In this document: in pieces, positions 38,167 to 54,511 of the stretch
Layout of the letters: every line of letters begins with the position of its first letter
Position numbering within the stretch: the first letter of the stretch is position 1
Assembly (NCBI GenBank): GCA_038245295.1
Contig: JBBRSP010000027.1
Coordinates: 19,539-83,538 of the forward strand
DNA length: 64,000 nucleotides
Source of the DNA: Candidatus Binatia bacterium
Lineage (GTDB): Bacteria > Desulfobacterota > Binatia > HRBIN30
Reading direction: 5' to 3'
Position numbers and translations under genes: made by a program
Notes under the pieces: model-generated
What the model saw: the letters and a program-made list of their open reading frames with translations, nothing else
What the model was told of the DNA's origin: nothing
Database searches by the model: none

Positions 38167-38718
38167 ATGCTGACGTTACCGAACTTCCTCACCCTCCTGC
38201 GCATCCTCGCCGTGCCGGTCTTTTTGATCGTCGTGGTCAATGGCGACTACGGCTGGGGCCTCGTGGTCTTCTTCTTGGCGGGCTTCACCGATTCGATCGA
38301 CGGCGCCATCGCGCGCATCTTCGACAGCTACAGCGATCTCGGCGCCAGCCTCGATCCGGTCGCCGACAAGTTGATCCTCGTCAGCGCCTTCCTGTCGCTC
38401 GGTTGGATTGGCGCGGTGCCGCCATGGTTGGTGATTCTGACCTTCATGCGCGACATCACCATTCTTGGCGGATACATCACGATCTATTTCGTCAGCAAAC
38501 CGATGACCGTCGATCCCACGTTCCTTGGCAAGCTCAACACCTTCAATGAAATGTTCACCATCGGCTTTGCGCTGCTGACCCTGGCGCGCCCCGACATCCC
38601 AATGGGCATGATCAACGAAGTGTTGTGGATTGCCACGGGAATCACCACGACGTTGTCGGGAACCCACTACGTCTATATGGGCTTGCTGTTCTATCAGCGT
38701 GAGGGCGCCAAGCCGTGA
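38167..38718 (+). CDS. CDP-alcohol phosphatidyltransferase (PgsA-like)
   Basis: PNFLTLLR, DSIDGAIAR...G..LDPVADK. Confidence 0.92.
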   Translation: MLTLPNFLTLLRILAVPVFLIVVVNGDYGWGLVVFFLAGFTDSIDGAIARIFDSYSDLGASLDPVADKLILVSAFLSLGWIGAVPPWLVILTFMRDITILGGYITIYFVSKPMTVDPTFLGKLNTFNEMFTIGFALLTLARPDIPMGMINEVLWIATGITTTLSGTHYVYMGLLFYQREGAKP

Positions 38719-39509
38719 CGGCGGGACGGCGCAGCGCGGTTGTGGTCGCGACCCTCGTCGTGTGCGCCCGCATCGCCGTCGGCGACGACGCCAAATCGGT
38801 CCTCGACCATCTGCGTCACTTGATCCAGACGACGCGCAAGTGGAACGATCGCACACAGGAACTGAGGCTACGTATCGTCGATAACCGTGGCGGCGAGCGC
38901 ACCCGTGAAGTGACGATTCGCACCAAGAAGTTCGAAGGCGACAAGACGCGCACCCTGTTGCGCTTCGAGGCTCCGTCGGACGTCAAGGGCGTGGCCATGC
39001 TGCAATGGGCGGACCCCAAGGGGGCCGACTCGCAATGGCTCTACTTGCCGGAGTTGCGCAAGGTCCGTCAGGTCGCCGGCGGCGCCAAACGCCAGAGTTT
39101 CGTCGGCACTGACTTTAGCTACGAGGATCTAGCCATCATCACTCAGTTCCAGGACTGGACGGACAGCGAAGCCCGCGCCACGCTGCTGCGGCACGAACCA
39201 CTCAACGGCGACACGGCGCAGGTCCTGGAGTTTGTTCCAACGGGCAAGGATCTGGCATACGCCAAAATCCTCGTGTGGCTTGCCGGCAACGATCTGCTGG
39301 CGGCTCGCTTCGAGTTCTACGACCCGTCGGGTGAGTTGAAGAAGCGCTTGTCGCAGACGGAGTGGCGTCCGGTCGGAACAATCGCCACCGCCTTTCACAT
39401 GGAGCTGGAGAACATCCAGGGGAACAGCAGGACCGTCGCCGACTTCTCCAAGGTGACCTATGACTCAGGCCTGGCCGACGAGGTCTTCACCCAGCGCTCG
39501 TTGGAGTAA
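38715..39509 (+). CDS. LolA-like outer-membrane lipoprotein-sorting protein
   Basis: F..P.DVKG...QWLYLPEL.KVR...SFVGTDFSYED...FTQRSL. Confidence 0.8.
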   Translation: MTAGRRSAVVVATLVVCARIAVGDDAKSVLDHLRHLIQTTRKWNDRTQELRLRIVDNRGGERTREVTIRTKKFEGDKTRTLLRFEAPSDVKGVAMLQWADPKGADSQWLYLPELRKVRQVAGGAKRQSFVGTDFSYEDLAIITQFQDWTDSEARATLLRHEPLNGDTAQVLEFVPTGKDLAYAKILVWLAGNDLLAARFEFYDPSGELKKRLSQTEWRPVGTIATAFHMELENIQGNSRTVADFSKVTYDSGLADEVFTQRSLE

Positions 39510-39675: not shown

Positions 39676-40866
39676 TCAGCCGCGCGGCAACCCCAACACG
39701 CGCTGCGCAATGATGTTGCGTTGCACCTCCGACGTGCCGGCGTAGATCGTCGCCGACCGCGACCACAGGAGCTCGTATTCCCAGAAGCCACCGTCGGCCG
39801 CGTACGGTTCGCCCGCCGGAATCAGGCCGCGGTTGCCGAGGATCTCGATCGCCGTGTCCTTGAGGCGCTGCTCGAGCTCGCTCCAGAAAATCTTGAGGAT
39901 CGAGCCTTCCTCGCCGGGGACGCCGGTGCGCGACATCTTGGTGACGTTACGATACGCGGTGTAGCGCAAGATGGCGGCTTCGATGAGCGACTGCGCCACC
40001 TTCTGGCGGATGATCGGATCGTCTGCAGCGCTACGGCCGTTGCGTGGCGTGTCGATCGCCAGACGCGCCAGGCGACGGCTTTCAGCGGCCAGCCGGACAT
40101 GCGGCGTCGTGCCGGCGCGTTCGTGGCCGAGTGTGGTCATGACCACATCCCAGCCGCCGTTGATGGCGCCGACGGCGTTGGCGCGCGGCACGCGCACCTC
40201 GTCGAAGAAGACTTCGTTGAACCACTCCTCGCCGGTCATTTCCTTGAGCGGCCGAATCGTGATGCCCGGCGACTTCATGTCGACAAGCAGAAAGGTGAGG
40301 CCCTTATGCTTCGGACCTTCGAAGTTGGTGCGGGTCACCAGCATGCACCAGTCGGCGTATCGTGCCACGCTGGTCCAGATCTTCTGCCCGGTCACGATGA
40401 ACTCGTCACCGACCAGCTCCGCCTTACACTTCACCGAGGCGAGATCCGATCCGGCATTCGGCTCCGAGAATCCCTGGCACCAGATCTCTTCGCCCTTCAG
40501 GATCTTGTCGAGATGCTCCGCCTTTTGTTCCGGGGTCCCGCAGGCGATCAGCGTCGGGCCGACGAGACTGAGGCCGATCTTGAGCGCCAGGATGTCGGGA
40601 GCGCTGAACTGCGCGTAGGCCTCGTTGTAGATCAGCTGCTCGATGATGCTGAAACCGCGGCCGCCATACTCCTTCGGCCAGATGATGCCGGCCCAGCCGC
40701 CGTCGTAGAGAGCACGTTGCCACTTTCGCGCGAACGCCACCTGCTCGGCCGGCGTCTTCGGCGGCTGATACGCCGGGGTGCCCCAGCCGGTCGGCAGATT
40801 GGCGCGCAGCCAGTCTAGGATGGTACTGCGGAACGACTTTTGGTCGCCGGTGAGCTCTAGGTCCAT
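39676..40866 (-). CDS. Acyl-CoA dehydrogenase
   Basis: WCQGFSEPNAGSDLAS, GQKIWTS, FNEVFFD, IYAGTSEVQRNII. Confidence 0.93.
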   Translation of the reverse strand: MDLELTGDQKSFRSTILDWLRANLPTGWGTPAYQPPKTPAEQVAFARKWQRALYDGGWAGIIWPKEYGGRGFSIIEQLIYNEAYAQFSAPDILALKIGLSLVGPTLIACGTPEQKAEHLDKILKGEEIWCQGFSEPNAGSDLASVKCKAELVGDEFIVTGQKIWTSVARYADWCMLVTRTNFEGPKHKGLTFLLVDMKSPGITIRPLKEMTGEEWFNEVFFDEVRVPRANAVGAINGGWDVVMTTLGHERAGTTPHVRLAAESRRLARLAIDTPRNGRSAADDPIIRQKVAQSLIEAAILRYTAYRNVTKMSRTGVPGEEGSILKIFWSELEQRLKDTAIEILGNRGLIPAGEPYAADGGFWEYELLWSRSATIYAGTSEVQRNIIAQRVLGLPRG

Positions 40867-40942: not shown

Positions 40943-42124
40943 CTACGCCGAAGGCCGAACGAGGACCCGGTAGTCTGTCAACGTCACGAAGCCCATGCGC
41001 TCGTAAACCGGCCGGCCCATCGGTGATGCTTGTAGGTTGGCAAAGGCGGCGCCGCGGCGGAAGCCTTCACGCACCGCCGCCCAGGTCGCTGCTTCGGCAT
41101 AGGCGCGGCCACGCTGATCGGGCAGGGTGCCGACCCAGCCGATGCCGGCAACGCCGTGCGATAGATACAACCAGGCCGCGCTGACCGGTTTGTTGTCGAC
41201 GTACCCGACGAAACCTTGAATGTGGGGCGCGCTGACACTCTCGAGGCGCGCGAAAATATCGTCCATCATCACGCGCGGTGAGCCGTACGTCGCGTAGGCT
41301 TCGGCGCTCACATACGCGTAGTCTCGACGTCCCTGATCGTCGATCGCCGGTCGAAGTTCGAGATCCGCCGGCGCACACTCGGTGCCGGGATCGCCGAGCA
41401 AGGCCATGCCCGGCATCGTCGTCAAATCCATCCAGCCACGCTCGCGCAGCCAGCCTTCGACCTCCGAGTCCGCGTGCGCGCGGGTGCAGACGGAATAGTG
41501 CTTCATCCGCCCAGCGTAAAACTCTTCCGCCTCCGCCAGCAGCGCGGACGGATCAACCGGGCCATTCACCATGACCATGTTGTTGAACGCGCCGCCGCGC
41601 GGCGTCAGGCCCATCCACGCCGATTCGCTCTCGCGCAGCAGCGAGCCGCGCCCGAGGTGAATGATCTCGCGGTACATCTCCTGGCAGTTGAGGTCCATCG
41701 CCCGAAGTTGCGCCTCGCGGTCACCGGGGACGCCAAAGGATCGTGCCACGAGCTGTGTATCGAGGTACTCGGTTGCCGAGCTGACGACGCCGCCGTCGAA
41801 ACGGAAGACGAAGCAATAGACGTTGTTATATGGGGCGCCGGAGCGCAACGACGAGATGCCGCGGGCTTGAACGACGACGTAGTCGCCGGACGCGATAATA
41901 TTGTCGGCATGCAGCGCCAGCGGGGTGGCCAAGGCCACACCGAGGCGAGCCGGGACGTTTGACAGGAAGCTGTCTTTGCCACGGAACGTTCCCGAGAACG
42001 TTGTGTCGCCAATGACGCGATACGTCACATCGTTCGAAAGGATGGCGAGGAACGGACCAGGGTTGCCCTGGGCCATCTCGGAAAACGCGGTACGGATTGC
42101 CTCGGCGCGCTCGTCTGTCGTCAT
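40943..42124 (-). CDS. SnoaL/NTF2-like domain fused to a GNAT acetyltransferase (393 aa)
   Basis: N-terminal FSGTFRGK...YNNVYCFVF...EYLDT; C-terminal VGTLPDQRGRAYA...ASPMGRPVYERMGF. ATGA overlap with the upstream gene. Confidence 0.8.
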   Translation of the reverse strand: MTTDERAEAIRTAFSEMAQGNPGPFLAILSNDVTYRVIGDTTFSGTFRGKDSFLSNVPARLGVALATPLALHADNIIASGDYVVVQARGISSLRSGAPYNNVYCFVFRFDGGVVSSATEYLDTQLVARSFGVPGDREAQLRAMDLNCQEMYREIIHLGRGSLLRESESAWMGLTPRGGAFNNMVMVNGPVDPSALLAEAEEFYAGRMKHYSVCTRAHADSEVEGWLRERGWMDLTTMPGMALLGDPGTECAPADLELRPAIDDQGRRDYAYVSAEAYATYGSPRVMMDDIFARLESVSAPHIQGFVGYVDNKPVSAAWLYLSHGVAGIGWVGTLPDQRGRAYAEAATWAAVREGFRRGAAFANLQASPMGRPVYERMGFVTLTDYRVLVRPSA

Positions 42125-42870
42125 GCGACTTCGAGTACCACACCGCCGCCGCGACACCCACACCCACGCATGCGGACGGCCCGGAAAGATGTGGCATAGC
42201 GGATCTCGGGTTGTCTCCGGCTGACCACCAGATGGCCGTCGATCACCTCGGCGCCGAGGTTCTGATCCACGTGATAGAAACCATCGGCACAGCTTGCCGC
42301 GATGAAACTGGCGACCTCCGCCGCCGCCAACCACGCGCGTTGCCAGCCGCGGAATTGCAACGACGCGGGGACGGGTGGTTGGGGGACCGGAATCGTATCG
42401 CTCCGCAACCACAGAATTCCGGTGAGCCACGGACGCTCGGCCACGGGCGCAGCGTTGAGAAAGCGCTCACCGGTTCGCGGATCGAGGATGAGGACATGGG
42501 TCTCGACACGGTCGACCAACTCCCACGCCGCGTTCGCCGCCGCGTCCGTGTCTGGCGTCCCCAGGGGTACGTCAAGCGCCCCGCAGTCTTCGATGACATC
42601 TCCCAGCAGCAACGACCCGGGCGAAGCCAAGGCGCCCGGCATAGTGTTGGCGACGCGCATCCCGGCTTTGATGCCGGCGCGGCGCAATACTCGCGCTCCC
42701 TCGGCGCGCTCGCGTTGGAGATCTTCCTCTGTCCATGTGAGCAAGACGAGAGAATCGCCGCTACCCGTAATCCCGGCACGCACCAGGGGTGCGGCGTCGA
42801 GGGGCTGGGGCATCGGTCGCCGCGCCACCAACTGCGGCCGCGTCGTCAGTCCGCTGGGTGTAACCGGCAT
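42121..42870 (-). CDS. Truncated, degenerate phenylacetate-CoA ligase (PaaK)-like protein
   Basis: WTEEDL...GIKAGMRVAN, AEVID, IRY, CGC recall the PaaK N-domain. No SSGTTG loop and no C-terminal subdomain. Confidence 0.55.
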   Translation of the reverse strand: MPVTPSGLTTRPQLVARRPMPQPLDAAPLVRAGITGSGDSLVLLTWTEEDLQRERAEGARVLRRAGIKAGMRVANTMPGALASPGSLLLGDVIEDCGALDVPLGTPDTDAAANAAWELVDRVETHVLILDPRTGERFLNAAPVAERPWLTGILWLRSDTIPVPQPPVPASLQFRGWQRAWLAAAEVASFIAASCADGFYHVDQNLGAEVIDGHLVVSRRQPEIRYATSFRAVRMRGCGCRGGGVVLEVA

Positions 42871-42873
42871 GGC

Positions 42874-44022
42874 TCAATCGCGTTGTAGGATATGGATGAC
42901 GCAAACGCTGCCGCCACCCATCATGTGACACAGGCCGATCTTGGCGTCCTTGACCTGGCGCTTGCCGGCTTCGCCGCGCAACTGCAGCGTCGTCTCCCAG
43001 ATCTGCGCCAGACCCGTCGGGCCACCGGGATGACCGCGGGCGATCAGGCCACCATCGGTCGAGACGGCCACACGTCCGTTGAGATCGAACTCATTGTTGT
43101 CGATGCACTTCTCGGCCTCGCCGGGCTTACACAATCCAAGCAGCTCGTAGTACTCGATCTCCTCGATGGCGAACGCGTCGTGCACCTGGACCAGATCGAG
43201 ATCTTCCGGGCCGACGCTGGCTTCCTCGTAGACGTTCTTCGAGGTGTCGATGGTCATCTGCGCCGGTCCAACGACCGGGCCCATGAACAGATGGCCGGGC
43301 GCGTACTTCTCGCTCTGCAGATCGGACGCCGTGACGCGCACGACCGGACGACCGGGGTTGAGCTTCTTCGCGAGATCGGCGCGGCCAACGATGGCGCAAG
43401 CGGCGCCGTCGCCCATCGGGCACGACATCATCGTCGTCAGCGGCCATGCCACCGGGCGCGACGACATGACCTTCTCGTAGGTGATCAACTTGTCGGAGAT
43501 GCGCTGCGCCTTCGGGTTGAGGGCGCCGTTGTTGAAGTTTTTGGCGGCGACCTTGGCGAGGTGTTCGACCTTCATGCCGCGTTCGTGCATGCGGCGTGTC
43601 GCCCACAGCGCGAAGAAGCCGGCCGGCAGGATGGCGTCTTCCATATTCTCCGGCGCCGTGCCGGCCGTGCTGGTCTGGATCATCGTCGTCATCTTGTCGA
43701 AACCGAGGACCATGACGACGTCGTAACGACCCGAGGCCACCTGCATGCAGGCCTCGCGGAAGGCCGCCGAGCCGGTGGCCGAGGCGTTCTCGATACGTTG
43801 CACCGGCAAACCGGTGAGCCCGAACTCTTTCATGACTCGCACCCCGGCCATAACCGGGGCGAAGATATGGCCGACGTAGGCGGCCTGCACATCACGGAAG
43901 GACAGGCCGGCGTCCTTCAACGCTTCCATGCCGGCTTCGCGCGCCATCACATTGTTGGCTCCGCCGTCGTAATACATCCCGAAGCGATGCATCCCGACGC
44001 CGAGAACAGCGACATCCCGCAT
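42874..44022 (-). CDS. Thiolase-superfamily (SCP2-type) protein with Ser at the nucleophile position
   Basis: VLGVGMH.FG, ENASATGS, DGAA, VHDAF, GG...GHP.G.TG, QLRGEAG.RQV. Confidence 0.88.
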   Translation of the reverse strand: MRDVAVLGVGMHRFGMYYDGGANNVMAREAGMEALKDAGLSFRDVQAAYVGHIFAPVMAGVRVMKEFGLTGLPVQRIENASATGSAAFREACMQVASGRYDVVMVLGFDKMTTMIQTSTAGTAPENMEDAILPAGFFALWATRRMHERGMKVEHLAKVAAKNFNNGALNPKAQRISDKLITYEKVMSSRPVAWPLTTMMSCPMGDGAACAIVGRADLAKKLNPGRPVVRVTASDLQSEKYAPGHLFMGPVVGPAQMTIDTSKNVYEEASVGPEDLDLVQVHDAFAIEEIEYYELLGLCKPGEAEKCIDNNEFDLNGRVAVSTDGGLIARGHPGGPTGLAQIWETTLQLRGEAGKRQVKDAKIGLCHMMGGGSVCVIHILQRD

Positions 44023-44024
44023 GA

Positions 44025-44462
44025 TCAGCCCTCCACCGGACGGAAGCGCACGATCACGACATCGCTTCCGGCTTCTTCCCGCATCACATCGAGCTCGGCT
44101 TCCATTGTCTGGCCGATCTTGAAATCACCCTGCTTGCCGGCGAGCGGCAGTTGCACGCGCGGGCCCTGGGTCAAATCGACCTGGCCAACGCCATACCCCT
44201 CGGCGTGCTCCATGTTGCTCGAGCCGAACAGCGGCAGGTGCACGAAGGTGTAACTGTAGAGGGTGCCGCGCGGACCTAGATCGGCGTCGACGACGTCCTC
44301 CGACAGGCAGCTCGCCTTGGCGCAAATCGCCCGCTTCGGGAAATAGTGCTCGCCGCATGTGTTGCACTTGCTGCCAAGCAACCGGGGCGGTTCCTTGGGG
44401 TCTTCGGGGATTGTGAAGTACCCGGCCTTCAGCGGCACGCGCGGCCGCGACTGCGTTGTCAT
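44025..44462 (-). CDS. DUF35-type Zn-ribbon/OB-fold protein
   Basis: CNTCG..YFP...C....C, GTLYSYT, VRFRP. Ends 2 bp before the thiolase start. Confidence 0.9.
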   Translation of the reverse strand: MTTQSRPRVPLKAGYFTIPEDPKEPPRLLGSKCNTCGEHYFPKRAICAKASCLSEDVVDADLGPRGTLYSYTFVHLPLFGSSNMEHAEGYGVGQVDLTQGPRVQLPLAGKQGDFKIGQTMEAELDVMREEAGSDVVIVRFRPVEG

Positions 44463-44552: not shown

Positions 44553-44862
44553 CGTCATCCCGGCGTACGAGACTGTCGATTTACTCGGAAACCATATTTG
44601 AAACCAAGCAGAGGTATCCGTCATACCGGCGAAAGCCGGTATCTCGCCAGCTTCCGAGGCTTCCAGCAGGGGGAGATCCCGGTTTTCACCGGGACGACGT
44701 TGCTCCACTTTGGTTTTACGACAGTCTCGAAAGCCGGGATCTCATCGAGTGGAAGGCCAAAAATGCTGGGGAGATACCGGCTTTCGCCGGTATGACGGAG
44801 GTGTTTGCGCAGTTTCAAATGATGAATCAGAGAAAATCGACAGTCTCGTTCGCCGGATGACG
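44553..44862. mobile_element. Nested MITE-like elements with GAGACTGTCG ends carrying REP doublets
   Basis: Inner copy 44569-44728 (GAGACTGTCG...CGACAGTCTC) interrupts CGTCATCCCGGC/GAAAGCCGGGATCTC of an opposite-orientation copy whose end is at 44838-44847. Confidence 0.75.
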
Positions 44863-46354: not shown

Positions 46355-47152
46355 ATGTCAGATCGTGTGACCGTGAAAATCGACGCGGGGGTCGCTGATG
46401 TGCGGCTCAATCGCGCCGACAAGATGAACGCCATCGATGCCGCGATGTTCGAAGCGCTGACCGCTACCGGCGAGGCCCTGTCGCAGGACAAGAGCGTTCG
46501 CGCCGTTGTGCTTTCCGGCGAGGGTAGGGCGTTTTGTGCCGGCCTCGACTTCATGAGCTTCATGGGGATGGGCAACAAAGACCGGCCGTCGGCCGAGCTC
46601 ATCGGTGACTCCGGCGGTAAGGTGGGAAATCGCGCTCAACGCGCCGCCTACGTCTGGCAGGAAGTTCCCGTGCCGGTGATCGCCGCGATCCACGGCGCTG
46701 CTTTCGGCGGTGGATTGCAGATTGCCTTGGGGGCCGACATCCGCCTGGTTCGGCCCGATGCGCAACTGTCCGTCATGGAGATCAAGTGGGGCCTCGTGCC
46801 CGACATGAGTGGAACGCAAACATTGCGGCACCTGGTGCGTCTGGACGTCGCCAAGGAGCTGACCTTTACAGGCAGAATCGTTTCCGGCACCGAGGCGGTG
46901 AGCCTGGGCTTGGCGACGCGGGTCAGCGACCAACCGCTGCAGGATGCCCTGAGCATGGCGCGCGAGATCGCCGGGAAATCTCCCGACGCGATCCGCTCCG
47001 ACAAGAAACTTCTCAATGCCTCGGATCTGGTCGACGTCGGCGCCGGCCTGAAGCTCGAGGAAACTCTGCAACTCGGCCTGATCGGTACGCCGAATCAGTT
47101 GGAGGCGGTAGCGGCGAACATGCAGAAACGAGCTCCGCAGTTCGTCGACTAA
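46355..47152 (+). CDS. Enoyl-CoA hydratase/isomerase (crotonase family)
   Basis: LNRADKMNA, FCAGLD, GGGLQIALGADIR, EIKWGLVPD; AAGGAG RBS. Confidence 0.92.
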   Translation: MSDRVTVKIDAGVADVRLNRADKMNAIDAAMFEALTATGEALSQDKSVRAVVLSGEGRAFCAGLDFMSFMGMGNKDRPSAELIGDSGGKVGNRAQRAAYVWQEVPVPVIAAIHGAAFGGGLQIALGADIRLVRPDAQLSVMEIKWGLVPDMSGTQTLRHLVRLDVAKELTFTGRIVSGTEAVSLGLATRVSDQPLQDALSMAREIAGKSPDAIRSDKKLLNASDLVDVGAGLKLEETLQLGLIGTPNQLEAVAANMQKRAPQFVD

Positions 47153-49346: not shown

Positions 49347-50099
49347 CTAGTTGCCGCGCGAACGCAGCGTCAGATGGTGGATGCTGACCGGGTCCGGCTG
49401 CGACAACTGGAAGAGAATCGCCCGCGCCGCGTCGTCCGCCGTGAGCATGGGGGTATCGCGACGCAGCAAACCCAACTTTTCCCAGCTCTGCACGGCGGCC
49501 GGCATGACGCTGCGATCAAAGCTCGAGGCGAAATCGGTGCCGGCGATGTTGTGGACTTCCAGCGTCATGACGCGCACGCCGTGCGGTGTCACCTCGCAAC
49601 GCAAGCCGTTCGACAACGTGTGGATGGCGGCTTTTGTAGCGGCGTACACGGAGAGATAGGGCCAGGCCTCGTGGGCGCTGGCCGAGGTGACGTTGAGGAT
49701 CGAACCGCGGCGTTGCGGAATCATGTGCCGCAGCGCCGCCCGGCAGCCGCTCAGGACACCGAGTAGATTCGTCTCGATCGTCGCGCGCCACTCTTCGGTC
49801 TGCCCGTCGGCGATCGTCCGCACGACCCCATAGGCGGCGTTGTTGACAATGGCGTCGAGTCTTCCGAAACGCTCGACGGCCGTGTCGACGAGGCGCTCGA
49901 CGTCGCCCTCGCGACGCATGTCGGTGACGGAATAGGCCGCCGCACTGCCGATCTGGTCACACACGGCGCGCAGTTTGGCCTCGCGCCGCGCCCCCAGCAC
50001 GACGCATGCTCCGCTTGCCGCCAGCAAACGCGCACTCGCGGCGCCAATTCCAGACGAAGCGCCGGTGATGACGACAACCGATCCATCCAACGATGACAT
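49347..50099 (-). CDS. Short-chain dehydrogenase/reductase
   Basis: TGASSGIG, NNA, YAATK. Confidence 0.92.
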   Translation of the reverse strand: MSSLDGSVVVITGASSGIGAASARLLAASGACVVLGARREAKLRAVCDQIGSAAAYSVTDMRREGDVERLVDTAVERFGRLDAIVNNAAYGVVRTIADGQTEEWRATIETNLLGVLSGCRAALRHMIPQRRGSILNVTSASAHEAWPYLSVYAATKAAIHTLSNGLRCEVTPHGVRVMTLEVHNIAGTDFASSFDRSVMPAAVQSWEKLGLLRRDTPMLTADDAARAILFQLSQPDPVSIHHLTLRSRGN

Positions 50100-50563: not shown

Positions 50564-52147
50564 ATGCTTCCTGCTCCGACTCTCGGCGAGCTCCTGCGGG
50601 CGGCGGCGCGTGAGGCTCCCGCCGCCGAGGCCTTCCGCTATCGCGACGAGTCGTTGTCGTATGAAGACTGGGATGAGCTCAGCGATCTGCTCGGTGGCGC
50701 CTTGTATCGACGCGGCGTGCGCCCGGGGGACGTCGTGGCATTGCTGCTGCCGTCGACGCCGCTGTATCTCGTTGCGTATCTCGCCGCGGCACGTATCGGC
50801 GCGGTGACCGCCGGCATCAATGCGCGTTATCGCCGGACAGAAATCGGACACATCCTGCGGCGCTCCGGCGCCAAGGTCCTGATCGCTGTCGACGCCTGGC
50901 ATGACGCCGACTTCCGCGCCGCCGTCGAGACCGAACACTCAGCCTTTCCCGAATTGCGAGAAATCGCCTGGGTGTCGGCCGCCGAGCTGCAACGCGGCAC
51001 TCGGGCGCTGGTTGAGGCACGCTTCAACGTGTCGTCGGGCGACGCCGAGGCTTTGCCACCGGATGCCGTTGAGCCCGATGATGCGGCGGCGATTATCTTT
51101 ACCAGTGGCACGACAGGCATCCCGAAGGGTGCCTGGTACACCCACCGCAACCTGCTCGCCCTCGCCGCGATCGATACGCGCCGCTACCGCGGCGGTGCAA
51201 TTCCATTTCGCAAACATCTGGCCGCCGGCCTGTCGTTTGCCCACATCGGTACGATGGCGCGCATCGCCATTCAGATCGGTCACACCGGCATGTCGATCAT
51301 CCACGACAGCTTCGATCCGGCCGCCGTACTGGCCGAGATCGAGCGTGAACGGCTGCAGCATCTCGGCGGCATTCCGACGCAGATTCTGATGCTGCTTGAT
51401 CACCCCGAGCGGGCTAAACACGACATCTCGTCGCTGCGTACGGTTCTGCTCGGCGGGGCGCCGTCGTCGCCGAGTCTGATTCGGCGCGTCCAGCAGGAGC
51501 TCGGCGTGACCATCAGTATTCGCTACTCGTCCACCGAAGTTGGAATCGCCACGGCGTCTTTGCCGGAAGACTCGGCGGAGACGCTGTGTGCCACGGTCGG
51601 TAAGGCAACGGAAGGCGTGGAGCTGCGCATCGTCGATGCCGAAGATCAACCGTTGCCGGTGGGGGAGGTTGGTCGTGTGGCCGTGCGCTCGCCGGCCACC
51701 ATGCGCGGCTACTGGCGCGACCCCGAAGCCACGGCGGCGACCATCGATACAAACGGTTGGATTCGCACCGGTGACCTCGGCTTCCTGGATGCCGAGGAAT
51801 ACCTGCATTTGCGCGGGCGCGAGAGCGAGATGTTCATTCGTGGCGGCTACAACGTTTATCCGGCCGAGGTGGAAGATCGCCTCGCCAAACATCCGCAGGT
51901 GGCGCGCGCCGCCGTGCTCGGGGTGCCGCACGATAAGTGGGGCGAAGCGGGGTGGGCGTATATCGTGCCGCGATCGAAAGACGATGTGCCGAAGCTTGAC
52001 GATCTGCGCCGCTTCGTTGGCACCGAGTTGGCGAGCTTCAAGCGGCCGGATGGAATCACCATCGTCAGCGAGTTGCCGCTGACCCCGATGTTCAAAGTCG
52101 ACAAACGCGCCCTGCGCGCGCAGCACCAAGCGGGAGGACCAGCATGA
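50564..52147 (+). CDS. Acyl-CoA synthetase (AMP-forming)
   Basis: FTSGTTGIPKG, YSSTE, RTGDLG, GGYNVYPAEVE, KVDK. Confidence 0.92.
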   Translation: MLPAPTLGELLRAAAREAPAAEAFRYRDESLSYEDWDELSDLLGGALYRRGVRPGDVVALLLPSTPLYLVAYLAAARIGAVTAGINARYRRTEIGHILRRSGAKVLIAVDAWHDADFRAAVETEHSAFPELREIAWVSAAELQRGTRALVEARFNVSSGDAEALPPDAVEPDDAAAIIFTSGTTGIPKGAWYTHRNLLALAAIDTRRYRGGAIPFRKHLAAGLSFAHIGTMARIAIQIGHTGMSIIHDSFDPAAVLAEIERERLQHLGGIPTQILMLLDHPERAKHDISSLRTVLLGGAPSSPSLIRRVQQELGVTISIRYSSTEVGIATASLPEDSAETLCATVGKATEGVELRIVDAEDQPLPVGEVGRVAVRSPATMRGYWRDPEATAATIDTNGWIRTGDLGFLDAEEYLHLRGRESEMFIRGGYNVYPAEVEDRLAKHPQVARAAVLGVPHDKWGEAGWAYIVPRSKDDVPKLDDLRRFVGTELASFKRPDGITIVSELPLTPMFKVDKRALRAQHQAGGPA

Positions 52148-53149: not shown

Positions 53150-53363
53150 CGAGTACCTCGGTCCTAGCGCCTCGAACGCCAACTAAACGTTCGATTGCAG
53201 CGGTTCCGGGTCCTTGGGCCGCGCTACTTCAGCGATTACCTCGGTGCCTAGGACCTTGGACCCGTCGAAGCGCGCGATGACATCGGTTCCTGGGCCTCCG
53301 CCCCCGTTATAGTTGTTGCAGCGATTACATCGGTGCCCTGGACCCGGCTACCGATGTAGTCGC
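53150..53363. repeat. Five degenerate direct repeats with ~42-bp period plus one inverted copy
   Basis: Core CGATTAC(A/C)TCGGT at 53150, 53192, 53233, 53275, 53322; inverted ACCGATGTAGTCGC at 53350-53363. Confidence 0.7.
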
Positions 53364-53485
53364 AGATTTTGCGGCTTCCAACTTACGCAGCCAACAACCC
53401 ACCGCCGCCCATGTCCATCGCCAAATAATGCCACCCGAGGCGGACCCTCCGATCAGATACCGACATCCGTTTGGATGACGTCCGC

Positions 53486-53864
53486 GTCATCAGTGCACCG
53501 TTACGCCGGCAGTTGGAGCGCGTCCGGGCACTGCATGAACAGGACTTGGCGGCGGGCTGTGCCGGCGTGTACCTTGCTGACGCTCTCGATCGCAAGTATC
53601 CGAACGCCGGGCGTGAACTCGCCTGGCAGTGGGTGTTTGCCGCGGCAGGGTTTTCGAGTGCCCCTCGCTCCGGCGTTCTCCGCCGCCACCACGCCGACGA
53701 GTCCGTGCGGCAACGCGCTGTCCGGCAGGCATCGCGCGACGCCGGGATCGCGCGCCGCGTCGGCTCACACTCTTCTCCGCCACAGTGTCGCCACACATTT
53801 GCTGGAGGCAGGCTACGACATACGAACCATCCAGGAGCTCCTGGGGCACGAGGACGTGACAACG
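53486..53864 (+). pseudogene. intI: Integron integrase remnant (5'- and 3'-truncated, frameshifted)
   Basis: IntI-specific patch [19 protein letters not shown] and RRHH; extra base near 53773; then [30 protein letters not shown]. Homology stops before the catalytic Tyr. Confidence 0.88.
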
Positions 53865-54025
53865 AAAGCGACAACCAAATCCTTACCACGGCGGGGAAAC
53901 AGCGCAGGTGCCAAGGATGACGGCATGCGAGAGACGACAGTTAGGCCAGGACACATTTCGGGGCACGAAGCAGTGTTCGGCGGGTGGCTCCATCGCGAGA
54001 TCGCGACCACAAAAGGAAGGTGCAC

Positions 54026-54511
54026 CACGAAGAGCACGACGCGGGCCTTGCTTGCAATCCACCGCAAGCAGGCAATTCGCGGAGGGCACGGGACGGGTAT
54101 TGCCACAGATGAATGGGATAAACACAGATAGTTTGCCAACAGCTAGGGGCCGCGATGCAGGCCGCAGGCCTGCATCTGTGCATCTGTGTTCATCTGCGTT
54201 CATCCGTGGCAATGAAACCGCACGGTGGTTTCAATCGCTCTAGATCATCGCGCGCCGCGACGAATTCGAACGTAACTAATATACGAAGACAGAGAGTTGA
54301 AACAGGGATCTTCAGGCGGCTCAGCCCTTCGTATTACTGACGTTCGAATTCGTCGCAGGACGCGCGATTTAGCAGGATGGACAGGATATACAGGATGAAC
54401 ACGACAAGAGCGCGTTCCCTGTTCCATCCTGTTTATCCTCTCCATCCTGTTGAATTCGTTCTGCGGGGTGTCGGTTGGGTTGCGGGCGAAGCCGGCGTCG
54501 TGGTCTTCGTG
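54026..54511. repeat. Nested inverted repeats: an outer pair enclosing three unrelated hairpins
   Basis: Outer CACGAAGAGCACGACG / CGTCGTGGTCTTCGTG; inner hairpins 54099-54213, 54247-54368, 54373-54449. Confidence 0.75.

Follow-up and report, generated by a model that had tools for sequence, protein, structure and literature searches.

The window analysed here, a stretch of 64,000 nucleotides from the genome of a Candidatus Binatia bacterium (assembly GCA_038245295.1, contig JBBRSP010000027.1, positions 19,539 to 83,538), contains an operon in which the gene for a small DUF35 protein is directly followed by the gene for a thiolase-like protein of the SCP2/BbsB type. In the thiolase-like protein the position of the nucleophilic cysteine is occupied by a serine (Ser81), and this serine is conserved throughout a clade of relatives from many phyla, whose genes likewise lie directly downstream of a DUF35 gene. 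The pair is a variant of the known complexes of DUF35 proteins with thiolase-fold enzymes, and it is new in its exchange of cysteine for serine. A preliminary description of this DNA had emphasised a set of four genes, namely those for the DUF35 protein, the thiolase-like protein, a PaaK-like protein (gene C) and a fusion of a SnoaL-like with a GNAT domain (gene D). The main interest lies in the clade-wide exchange and not in that set. Together with a gene for an acyl-CoA dehydrogenase (ACAD), these are five consecutive genes on the minus strand (Table 1).

A thiolase-like protein with a conserved serine at the nucleophile position

The best solved relatives of the thiolase-like protein are BbsB (7pxp_C, 205 bits over residues 2-373), an SCP2 thiolase (6hsj, 195 bits) and an archaeal thiolase (6esq, 186 bits). 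Only 75.6 bits were obtained with Ltp2 (6ok1), and 87-94 bits with PhlC. Ser81, part of the motif ENASATGS, aligns to the nucleophilic cysteine of both BbsB (7pxp_C) and the SCP2 thiolase (6hsj_A). Compared with the thiolase fingerprints (CxS and others) as given in the available part of PMC3406046, the protein thus has Ser81 instead of the nucleophilic cysteine of CxS. The histidines of the motifs GHP (His331) and HDAF (His281) are present, and they are kept in serine- and cysteine-bearing relatives alike. The acid/base cysteine of HDCF is missing, the motif reading HDAF as in BbsB and many relatives of the cysteine type. The score against the NCBIfam model for BbsB (214.6 bits) lies below its cut-off of 750, and none of six tested members of the serine clade matched any NCBIfam model at its cut-off.

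Among the close orthologues, which comprise the window's protein and those of 11 loci in relatives (77-88% identity), the serine was found in 12 of 12, with identical ENASATGS, HDAF and C-terminal motifs. For a wider view, 1.84 billion cluster representatives were searched with HMMER, yielding 589 matches at E ≤ 1e-30. The window's protein was aligned with 129 of the best 150 of these representatives, 21 being left out as shorter than 340 amino acids (aa). In the resulting 130 rows the nucleophile column holds cysteine 102 times, serine 21 times (window included), alanine, threonine and aspartate twice each, and glycine once. In a FastTree phylogeny, 19 of the 21 serine rows fall into one group of 22 rows (SH-like support 92, under the star threshold), which also contains two long-branched cysteine rows and one alanine row. 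Consistent differences between the serine group and the 102 cysteine rows are confined to four columns (S81, E287, Y291 and P335); H281, D282 and G330-H331-P332 are common to both. In one representative (P0129) about 125 additional residues precede the thiolase part at the N-terminus; read by eye, they are possibly a fused DUF35 domain.

Furthermore, GTDB was scanned with one genome per species. This gave 462 relatives, the best 80 of which were kept as loci, some of them contigs that had already been sampled (L039/L030, L040/L021, L056/L016 and L042/L119). Serine stands at the nucleophile position in all 77 loci that cover it, the other three of the 80 being cut off there. The labels of these loci are those deposited, some of which look unreliable in the case of metagenome-assembled genomes (MAGs); they comprise Binatia, Myxococcota/Deltaproteobacteria, Acidimicrobiales/Microthrixaceae/Actinomycetota, Dehalococcoidia/Chloroflexota, Reyranella and Burkholderiales. 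The nearest relatives are labelled Candidatus Binatia or Binatus, or are Deltaproteobacteria MAGs. Cultured carriers of the pair include Rhodococcus sp., Bradyrhizobium cenepequi and Acrocarpospora macrocephala.

The invariance of the serine argues for a direct role of this residue. A strain-specific decay of a normal thiolase was considered and rejected, because the serine codon (TCG) is two steps away from a cysteine codon and the serine is conserved clade-wide. Close homologues with canonical motifs, which the preliminary description had regarded as the mark of such a decay, were not encountered, neither among the 12 orthologues nor in the 77 scoreable loci. Cys365 and Cys374 were likewise dismissed as substitute nucleophiles, since neither is invariant in the clade. 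Rough Nei-Gojobori estimates of the ratio of nonsynonymous to synonymous substitution rates (dN/dS), made against locus L014 with dS near saturation, amount to 0.09 for the thiolase-like gene, 0.14 for the DUF35 gene, 0.17 for the ACAD gene and 0.27 for gene C, and by this rough measure the operon genes appear to be under purifying selection.

The host genome encodes 16 SCP2-type thiolase-like paralogues. Eight possess the cysteine, six of these in combination with HDCF. Six paralogues with a Y-D-x-F motif have glycine (three), valine, threonine or serine at the nucleophile position, and a seventh one of the tyrosine type combines glycine with YVPF. YDHF, the motif of Ltp2, occurs in two of them (C5:67736-68788 and C37:50352-51455), with glycine or valine at the nucleophile position; the other Y-D-x-F paralogues show YDAF (two), YDGF and YDSF. 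Among all these, serine is combined with HDAF in the window's gene only. In a tblastn search of the genome that used the DUF35 protein of the window as query (E ≤ 1e-6), and that could miss a divergent DUF35, a match within 1.5 kb was found for the window's gene and for one paralogue of the threonine type only. Judging from its YDHF-bearing proteins, the host may degrade sterol- or hopanoid-like side chains.

The DUF35 protein and comparison with known complexes

The DUF35 protein matched the Pfam families zf-ChsH2 (35.9 bits) and OB_ChsH2_C (37.2 bits) above their cut-offs and the NCBIfam model for BbsA weakly (45.7 bits, cut-off 250). Across 17 sequences, its cysteines C33, C36, C47 and C52 vary little or not at all. 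The thiolase-like gene is directly preceded by a DUF35 gene in 74 of the 80 loci, and these are all of the 74 loci with room for one, as the other six begin no more than 151 bases from a contig end. Because the serine (77 of 77) and the upstream DUF35 gene (74 of 74) hold across loci of many phyla, the pair represents the general core; it alone is the conserved entity in general, widespread and devoid of a curated name. The neighbours of the pair vary in distant lineages and often comprise a short-chain dehydrogenase/reductase (SDR), an AMP-binding ligase, a family-III CoA-transferase, Amidohydro_2, CMD, MaoC, an enoyl-CoA hydratase (ECH) or an ACAD. In the record of the cultured strain Bradyrhizobium cenepequi (L110, 2322-12159), for instance, the pair is flanked on one side by a GntR regulator and an AMP-ligase and on the other by a class-III aminotransferase, parts of an ABC transporter and an aldehyde dehydrogenase, a context unlike that in Binatia.

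Most similar to the pair is BbsAB (7pxp). In both, a small, separate gene for a Zn-ribbon/OB-fold DUF35 protein directly precedes an SCP2-type thiolase gene (with a gap of 2 bp in the window). BbsB is also the best solved match, with identical HDAF and GHP motifs, and likewise belongs to a modified beta-oxidation context. However, BbsB has a nucleophilic cysteine where the window's protein has serine, and no benzylsuccinate genes were found near the window's operon.

Ltp2-ChsH2 and Sal-Shy, both retro-aldolases for steroid side chains, are thiolase folds without the nucleophilic cysteine that are bound to a DUF35 partner. According to the available text of PMC12329534, their substrates are CoA esters that have already passed through an ACAD and a hydratase. 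Ltp2 is described there as using Tyr294 of YDHF together with Tyr344, and Sal as using Tyr302 and Cys304 of YDCY, with glycine at the thiolase nucleophile position. The window's protein shares the DUF35 partner, though as a free protein and not fused to a MaoC hydratase as in these systems. The catalytic tyrosine that opens the motif Y-D-(H/C)-(F/Y) is replaced by histidine (H281-D-A-F), Cys304 and Tyr344 are without equivalent, and serine stands where the aldolases have glycine. TLP1 of M. smegmatis, as far as it is covered in the accessible part of PMC3406046, likewise has glycine at the nucleophile position; its GHP motif is lost, and it shows no thiolase activity.

In the archaeal complex of thiolase, HMG-CoA synthase and DUF35, as in PhlABC and MucABC, a DUF35 protein connects a thiolase-like subunit with another enzyme. 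These systems differ from the window's in needing an acetylated cysteine (Cys88 of PhlC and Cys87 of MucB, following the excerpted text of PMC12960953) and a subunit resembling HMG-CoA synthase. A possible third subunit in the window is PaaK-like, and a domain resembling HMG-CoA synthase was detected neither in the genes of the window nor in the annotated neighbours. Going by these motifs, the serine clade fits neither the Ltp2/Sal aldolases nor TLP1 nor the PhlC/MucB type, because it combines the two thiolase histidines with an invariant serine and lacks both the aldolase tyrosine and a partner resembling HMG-CoA synthase. The literature searched for serine-type, DUF35-associated thiolases yielded no description of this clade.

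Conservation of the operon and its further genes

The gene order was compared in 18 loci around homologues of gene C in relatives. In 10 of them (L014, L015, L016, L018, L019, L020, L021, L025, L026 and L030) the order DUF35-thiolase-C-ACAD is conserved, and the relatives with this order are probably Binatia. In two of these loci, L018 and L019 of family f3, and only there, a second ACAD gene sits between the thiolase-like gene and gene C. One further locus (L031) shows the order DUF35-thiolase-C. The remaining seven (family f4 and genome G059) contain a more distant gene C (28-49% identity) without the DUF35-thiolase pair. Five of the six f4 loci (L022, L024, L027, L028 and L029) have a hydratase gene divergent from this distant gene C; ACADs are located near it in most, and a family-III CoA-transferase is also nearby. 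The f4 and G059 genomes possess the pair at a separate locus. Six such loci were checked, of which five have an upstream ligase gene and four a hydratase gene no more than 6 kb away. The assumption of a conserved unit of tightly spaced genes in the preliminary description is borne out by this conservation of gene order, except that the unit is DUF35-thiolase-C-ACAD rather than the four genes named there.

Co-occurrence was scored in 61 genomes, which are kin and not independent, a match at E ≤ 1e-10 being counted as gene C and one at E ≤ 1e-90 as the thiolase orthologue. Both were present in 30 genomes and neither in 27. Gene C alone was found in one (G005, with 1390 contigs) and the thiolase alone in three, of which G049 is 77% complete and G038 and G047 show just 59-60% identity. 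The co-occurrence also holds in genomes where both are unlinked, suggesting that gene C is functionally linked to the orthologue group of the window's thiolase. In the wider sample, the gene C profile was matched within 6 kb of the pair in eight of the 80 loci, all of the Binatia type, and in none of the 72 others.

Gene C reached no Pfam family, and its sole NCBIfam match, PaaK, scored 16.3 bits (cut-off 700). The AlphaFold2 model (pLDDT 91.2, pTM 0.89) gave as best Foldseek matches ClxA and PaaK-family ligases (E 9e-13 to 1e-9, TMq 0.74-0.79), and VIA-align superimposed 233 of its residues on residues 41-323 of PaaK1 (2y4n_A; Z 21.5, rmsd 2.5 Å). In hhalign, it was related to residues 76-325 of the genome's own PaaK-like paralogue of 435 aa with a probability of 98.4%. 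The predicted fold is thus that of the N-terminal domain of the PaaK family (PaaK1 2y4n, BT_0428 4r1l, ClxA 9s3l), with which gene C also shares the C..H and CxCG motifs; it differs in the absence of the first ~40-75 residues and in an identity of 17-20%. The protein stops a few residues past the CxCG motif, which corresponds to residue 325 of the paralogue, and consequently lacks the hinge and the entire C-terminal domain. In addition, GTSGKPT of the paralogue reads G-S-G-D-S-L in gene C, and RYDLED reads RYATSF.

The functional motifs of PaaK-type adenylation comprise the P-loop lysine, the ribose-binding aspartate, the hinge and the C-terminal lysine. Since gene C is devoid of the P-loop lysine, the aspartate of RY..D, the hinge and the C-terminal domain with its catalytic lysine, the protein cannot, by sequence criteria, adenylate, and is likely a pseudo-ligase or a binding subunit. 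The view of the preliminary description that two of the genes lack canonical catalytic motifs therefore holds, for gene C as well as for the thiolase-like protein with its Ser81. C194, H200, C237 and C239 are nearly invariant, and a C..H...CxC pattern also occurs in structures of the PaaK family. The four residues presumably bind zinc.

Gene C was rejected as a pseudogene fragment, because its family is conserved (34 columns do not vary among 40 aligned members), its model is confident (pLDDT 91) and its dN/dS is ~0.27. The family comprises 111 clusters of ~240-310 aa. Longer, fused forms were not found in the search, which is weak evidence. Between genera gene C keeps ~50% identity, compared with about 77-89% for the thiolase-like protein. 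As a lead only, similar short 'AMP-binding' clusters were noticed in Actinomycetota in the Atlas.

Gene D exceeds the Pfam gathering scores of SnoaL_2 (30.1 vs 27) and Acetyltransf_1 (26.3 vs 20.7). Its best PDB matches are the NTF2-like protein 3fgy (E 6e-5) and GNATs, and its structure model, built from a 6-sequence alignment, is of poor quality, with a pLDDT of 61.6. Apart from the window, only L015 and L050 have gene D behind gene C. Elsewhere, gene D occurs in full length at unlinked loci or only as separate halves. Just downstream of gene C in locus L004 (G007:C225:5147-5266, minus strand) lies a gene D remnant of 40 residues with 70% identity and one TAA stop, which suggests that gene D was once part of that operon and has since decayed. 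Gene D is a lineage-specific accessory gene.

The best solved matches of the ACAD are the steroid-type enzymes Tcur3483 (6wy9, 6wy8) and 4x28_A with ~178 bits, compared with ~105 bits for generic ACADs; 4x28 is presumably ChsE4-ChsE5. The best NCBIfam model was pimC_large (264.8 bits, below the cut-off of 623.85). The PimC- and steroid-type enzymes are alpha2beta2 proteins, and the window's operon differs from them in having only one ACAD gene. Orthologues with 72-78% identity follow gene C in the 10 loci with conserved order, and at least 15 such ACAD paralogues are encoded in the host genome.

Proposed reaction and alternatives

It is tentatively proposed, with somewhat less than even confidence, that the pair performs a C-C cleavage in a specialised pathway resembling beta-oxidation, by way of an acyl-enzyme formed at Ser81 with the aid of His331 (retro-Claisen). 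In such a pathway, a bulky or branched carboxylic acid would be activated to its CoA ester and dehydrogenated by the ACAD. A hydratase would then add water to the enoyl-CoA product, and an SDR would oxidise the hydroxyacyl-CoA to the 3-oxoacyl-CoA. Ser81, activated by His331, would attack C3, giving an O-acyl-serine intermediate, and His281 would stabilise the enolate of acetyl- or propionyl-CoA. The intermediate would finally be resolved by CoA. DUF35 would shape the substrate cleft, as in solved DUF35 complexes. Gene C might serve as a binding or docking subunit for the ligand or the acyl-CoA, and the SnoaL-GNAT protein would be an optional add-on.

Serine nucleophiles are known from DpsC within the thiolase superfamily, from C-C hydrolases of the alpha/beta-hydrolase fold and from malonyl/acyl transferases, which exchange acyl groups between a serine oxygen and thiols. 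The genes that recur near the pair point to a beta-keto substrate. SDR orthologues (58-66% identity) are located beside or near it in L014, L018, L019 and L050, and orthologues of the AMP-ligase (62-67%) adjoin it in L016/L056 (one contig) and L043. Hydratase orthologues (59-63%) lie divergently beside the DUF35 gene in L020, L021/L040 (one contig), L026 and L041. That the substrate is a bulky lipid is a hint and no more, taken from the affinities of the ACAD, from the LolA-like gene nearby and from the MMPL/sterol-sensing genes near the pair in L052 and L055.

Several points weigh against this proposal. To our knowledge, no degradative thiolase has been reported to use a serine as its nucleophile, and the literature on serine-type, DUF35-associated thiolases that was searched contained no biochemical datum on any member of the clade. 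A Cys-to-Ser mutagenesis of a thiolase reportedly concerned, by the title of the paper, the base Cys378 and not the nucleophile. Furthermore, a candidate acid/base for protonation of the enolate was not found, as HDAF, like that of BbsB, lacks the cysteine of HDCF and no other cysteine is invariant. The SDR and ligase genes of the window are 5-8 kb away rather than adjacent, and are syntenic in a minority of loci. Finally, since the genes around the pair are not the same in different phyla, the substrate and even the type of reaction may differ.

The preliminary description had suggested an aldolase or acyl-transfer system, with Ltp2-DUF35 and PhlABC as known examples. In the case of an aldolase the pair would act, like Ltp2-ChsH2 or Sal-Shy, as a retro-aldolase on the 3-hydroxyacyl-CoA made by the hydratase, without a covalent intermediate, His281 serving as the base and Ser81 merely forming a hydrogen bond to the hydroxyl or carbonyl group. 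The operon with its ACAD, a hydratase close by and no dehydrogenase for the hydroxy step would suit such a reaction, as would the similarity of the ACAD to steroid-type enzymes, and within the accessible part of PMC12329534 the cysteine-less thiolase-like proteins of assigned function are all DUF35-binding aldolases. However, the tyrosine that defines the type is absent, its place being taken by histidine, and the third residue of the motif is alanine instead of histidine or cysteine (HDAF, not YDHF or YDCY). The score with Ltp2 is low compared with that of BbsB (75.6 against 205 bits). In addition, the SDR, hydratase and ligase genes near the pair, with SDR orthologues recurring beside it, point to a beta-keto substrate, and serine is invariant at a site that is glycine in the aldolases. 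The host genome also holds separate Y-D-x-F paralogues, two of them with YDHF, that have glycine, valine or threonine at this site, so that the aldolase type is already present there in its usual form. A retro-aldolase is therefore regarded as doubtful, though as a serious competitor of the retro-Claisen cleavage.

We consider it improbable that the pair belongs to a biosynthetic acyltransferase or condensing enzyme comparable to PhlABC/MucABC or the archaeal complex, with the acyl group bound to Ser81, gene C recruited as the third subunit and the GNAT domain acting as a further acyltransferase. DpsC, the precedent for a serine nucleophile in the superfamily, is indeed an acyltransferase and priming ketosynthase. 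Gene C starts 3 bp behind the thiolase-like gene and co-occurs with the thiolase orthologue, and in the solved three-part complexes, as far as the available texts of PMC12329534 and PMC12960953 go, DUF35 joins the thiolase-like subunit to a second enzyme. Against this stand the modest match to PhlC (just 87-94 bits) and the neighbours, which are of a catabolic type (ACAD, ECH, SDR and ligase). Moreover, a subunit resembling HMG-CoA synthase or KAS III was found neither in the operon nor among the annotated neighbours, and gene C was near the pair in 0 of the 72 loci outside the Binatia-like order.

Non-catalytic partners such as those in heteromeric ACADs or PqsB-type subunits offer a comparison for the last alternative, an inert serine thiolase acting as a scaffold or as a substrate-binding or regulatory subunit for neighbouring enzymes. 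The absence of the hallmark cysteine and the lack of thiolase activity in the cysteine-less TLP1 of M. smegmatis (in the accessible part of PMC3406046) would agree with it, but it is very unlikely in view of the invariant serine, of both catalytic histidine motifs being kept where TLP1 lost GHP, of about 77-89% identity between genera in which gene C has ~50%, of a dN/dS of ~0.09 and of the eight canonical cysteine paralogues, for which the tblastn search described above found no DUF35 match within 1.5 kb.

We regard it as possible rather than probable that the pair is a widespread uncharacterised family containing the first thiolase-fold enzymes to cleave C-C bonds through an O-acyl-serine, and that Binatia recruited a pseudo-ligase derived from the N-terminal domain of PaaK as a third, substrate-handling subunit. 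The question raised is whether the thiolase fold can carry out a retro-Claisen reaction on an oxygen nucleophile, or whether this is a third repurposed active site beside those of the Ltp2 and Sal aldolases. Carriers of the pair are labelled Binatia, Myxococcota, Actinomycetota, Chloroflexota and Pseudomonadota. Their serine thiolases probably bear the annotation of an acetyl-CoA acetyltransferase or a lipid-transfer protein, and metabolic reconstructions of MAGs of Binatia, Myxococcota and Acidimicrobiia may consequently miscount the family as ordinary thiolases. The cultured carriers (records of Rhodococcus sp., Bradyrhizobium cenepequi and Acrocarpospora macrocephala) bring the question within experimental reach. 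The truncated PaaK-like protein represents a second uncharacterised family, with a confidently predicted fold.

Gene layout and genomic surroundings

The host assembly amounts to 6.6 Mb in 129 contigs with a completeness of 96.6%, and the window is part of its contig C27. Matches to the host DNA were obtained in DNA runs of one sediment-metagenome study, and no RNA run was among those listed. The successive gaps between the five minus-strand open reading frames (ORFs) of the operon are 2 bp, 3 bp, -4 bp (an ATGA overlap) and 76 bp, exactly as the preliminary description had it, and the chosen gene starts are backed by the N-termini of orthologues. As the arrangement recurs in other genomes, it is more than a product of chance. 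A scan for promoters and terminators gave no promoter-like site and six terminator-like sites, no more than in shuffled sequences.

Table 1. Genes of the operon and candidate pathway partners, with positions in the window.
Feature	Position	Strand	Length	Basis
DUF35 subunit, rubredoxin-like zinc ribbon and OB fold	44025..44462	-	145 aa	Pfam
Thiolase-like subunit, SCP2/BbsB type	42874..44022	-	382 aa	Pfam Thiolase_C_1 (124.7 bits) and Thiolase_N
Gene C, N-terminal large domain of a PaaK-type adenylate-forming enzyme	42121..42870	-	249 aa	Fold match
Gene D, fusion of SnoaL-like (NTF2) and GNAT acetyltransferase domains	40943..42124	-	393 aa	Pfam
ACAD, similar to PimC/steroid-type ACADs	39676..40866	-	396 aa	All three ACAD Pfam domains
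Enoyl-CoA hydratase, divergent, likely pathway partner	46355..47152	+	265 aa	ECH_1 (135.6 bits)
SDR, candidate 3-hydroxyacyl-CoA dehydrogenase	49347..50099	-	250 aa	adh_short (171 bits)
Full-length AMP-binding acyl-CoA synthetase, candidate activating enzyme	50564..52147	+	527 aa	AMP-binding (263 bits) and AMP-binding_C

Upstream of the DUF35 gene, an NDH-2 gene is located on the same strand. The ATG start of the hydratase gene is preceded by GAAGGAG, and beyond this gene follow a PMT_2-family membrane protein, the SDR, the AMP-binding ligase and an epimerase-like gene. The other flank of the operon comprises a LolA-like gene, a CDP-alcohol phosphatidyltransferase gene and housekeeping genes. 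The CDP-alcohol phosphatidyltransferase and LolA-like genes (38167-39509, plus strand) are syntenic with the operon in L020, L021, L026, L040, L041 and L100, with 55-62% identity; relative to these genomes, the window has NDH-2 inserted between the DUF35 and hydratase genes.

An element of ~128 nt occurs in two inverted copies between the DUF35 and NDH-2 genes (44560-44687 and 44729-44856), which are 76% complementary. It is dispersed in the genome, with 67 matches, of which ~40 are almost complete and show 86-96% identity. The matches frequently lie side by side in pairs, and the element looks like a miniature inverted-repeat transposable element or a repetitive extragenic palindromic element. 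Furthermore, an ORF at 53313-54131 (plus strand) had as its sole match a short stretch of phage integrase over residues 148-184, and may be a fragment that marks the boundary of a mobile element a few kb from the cluster.

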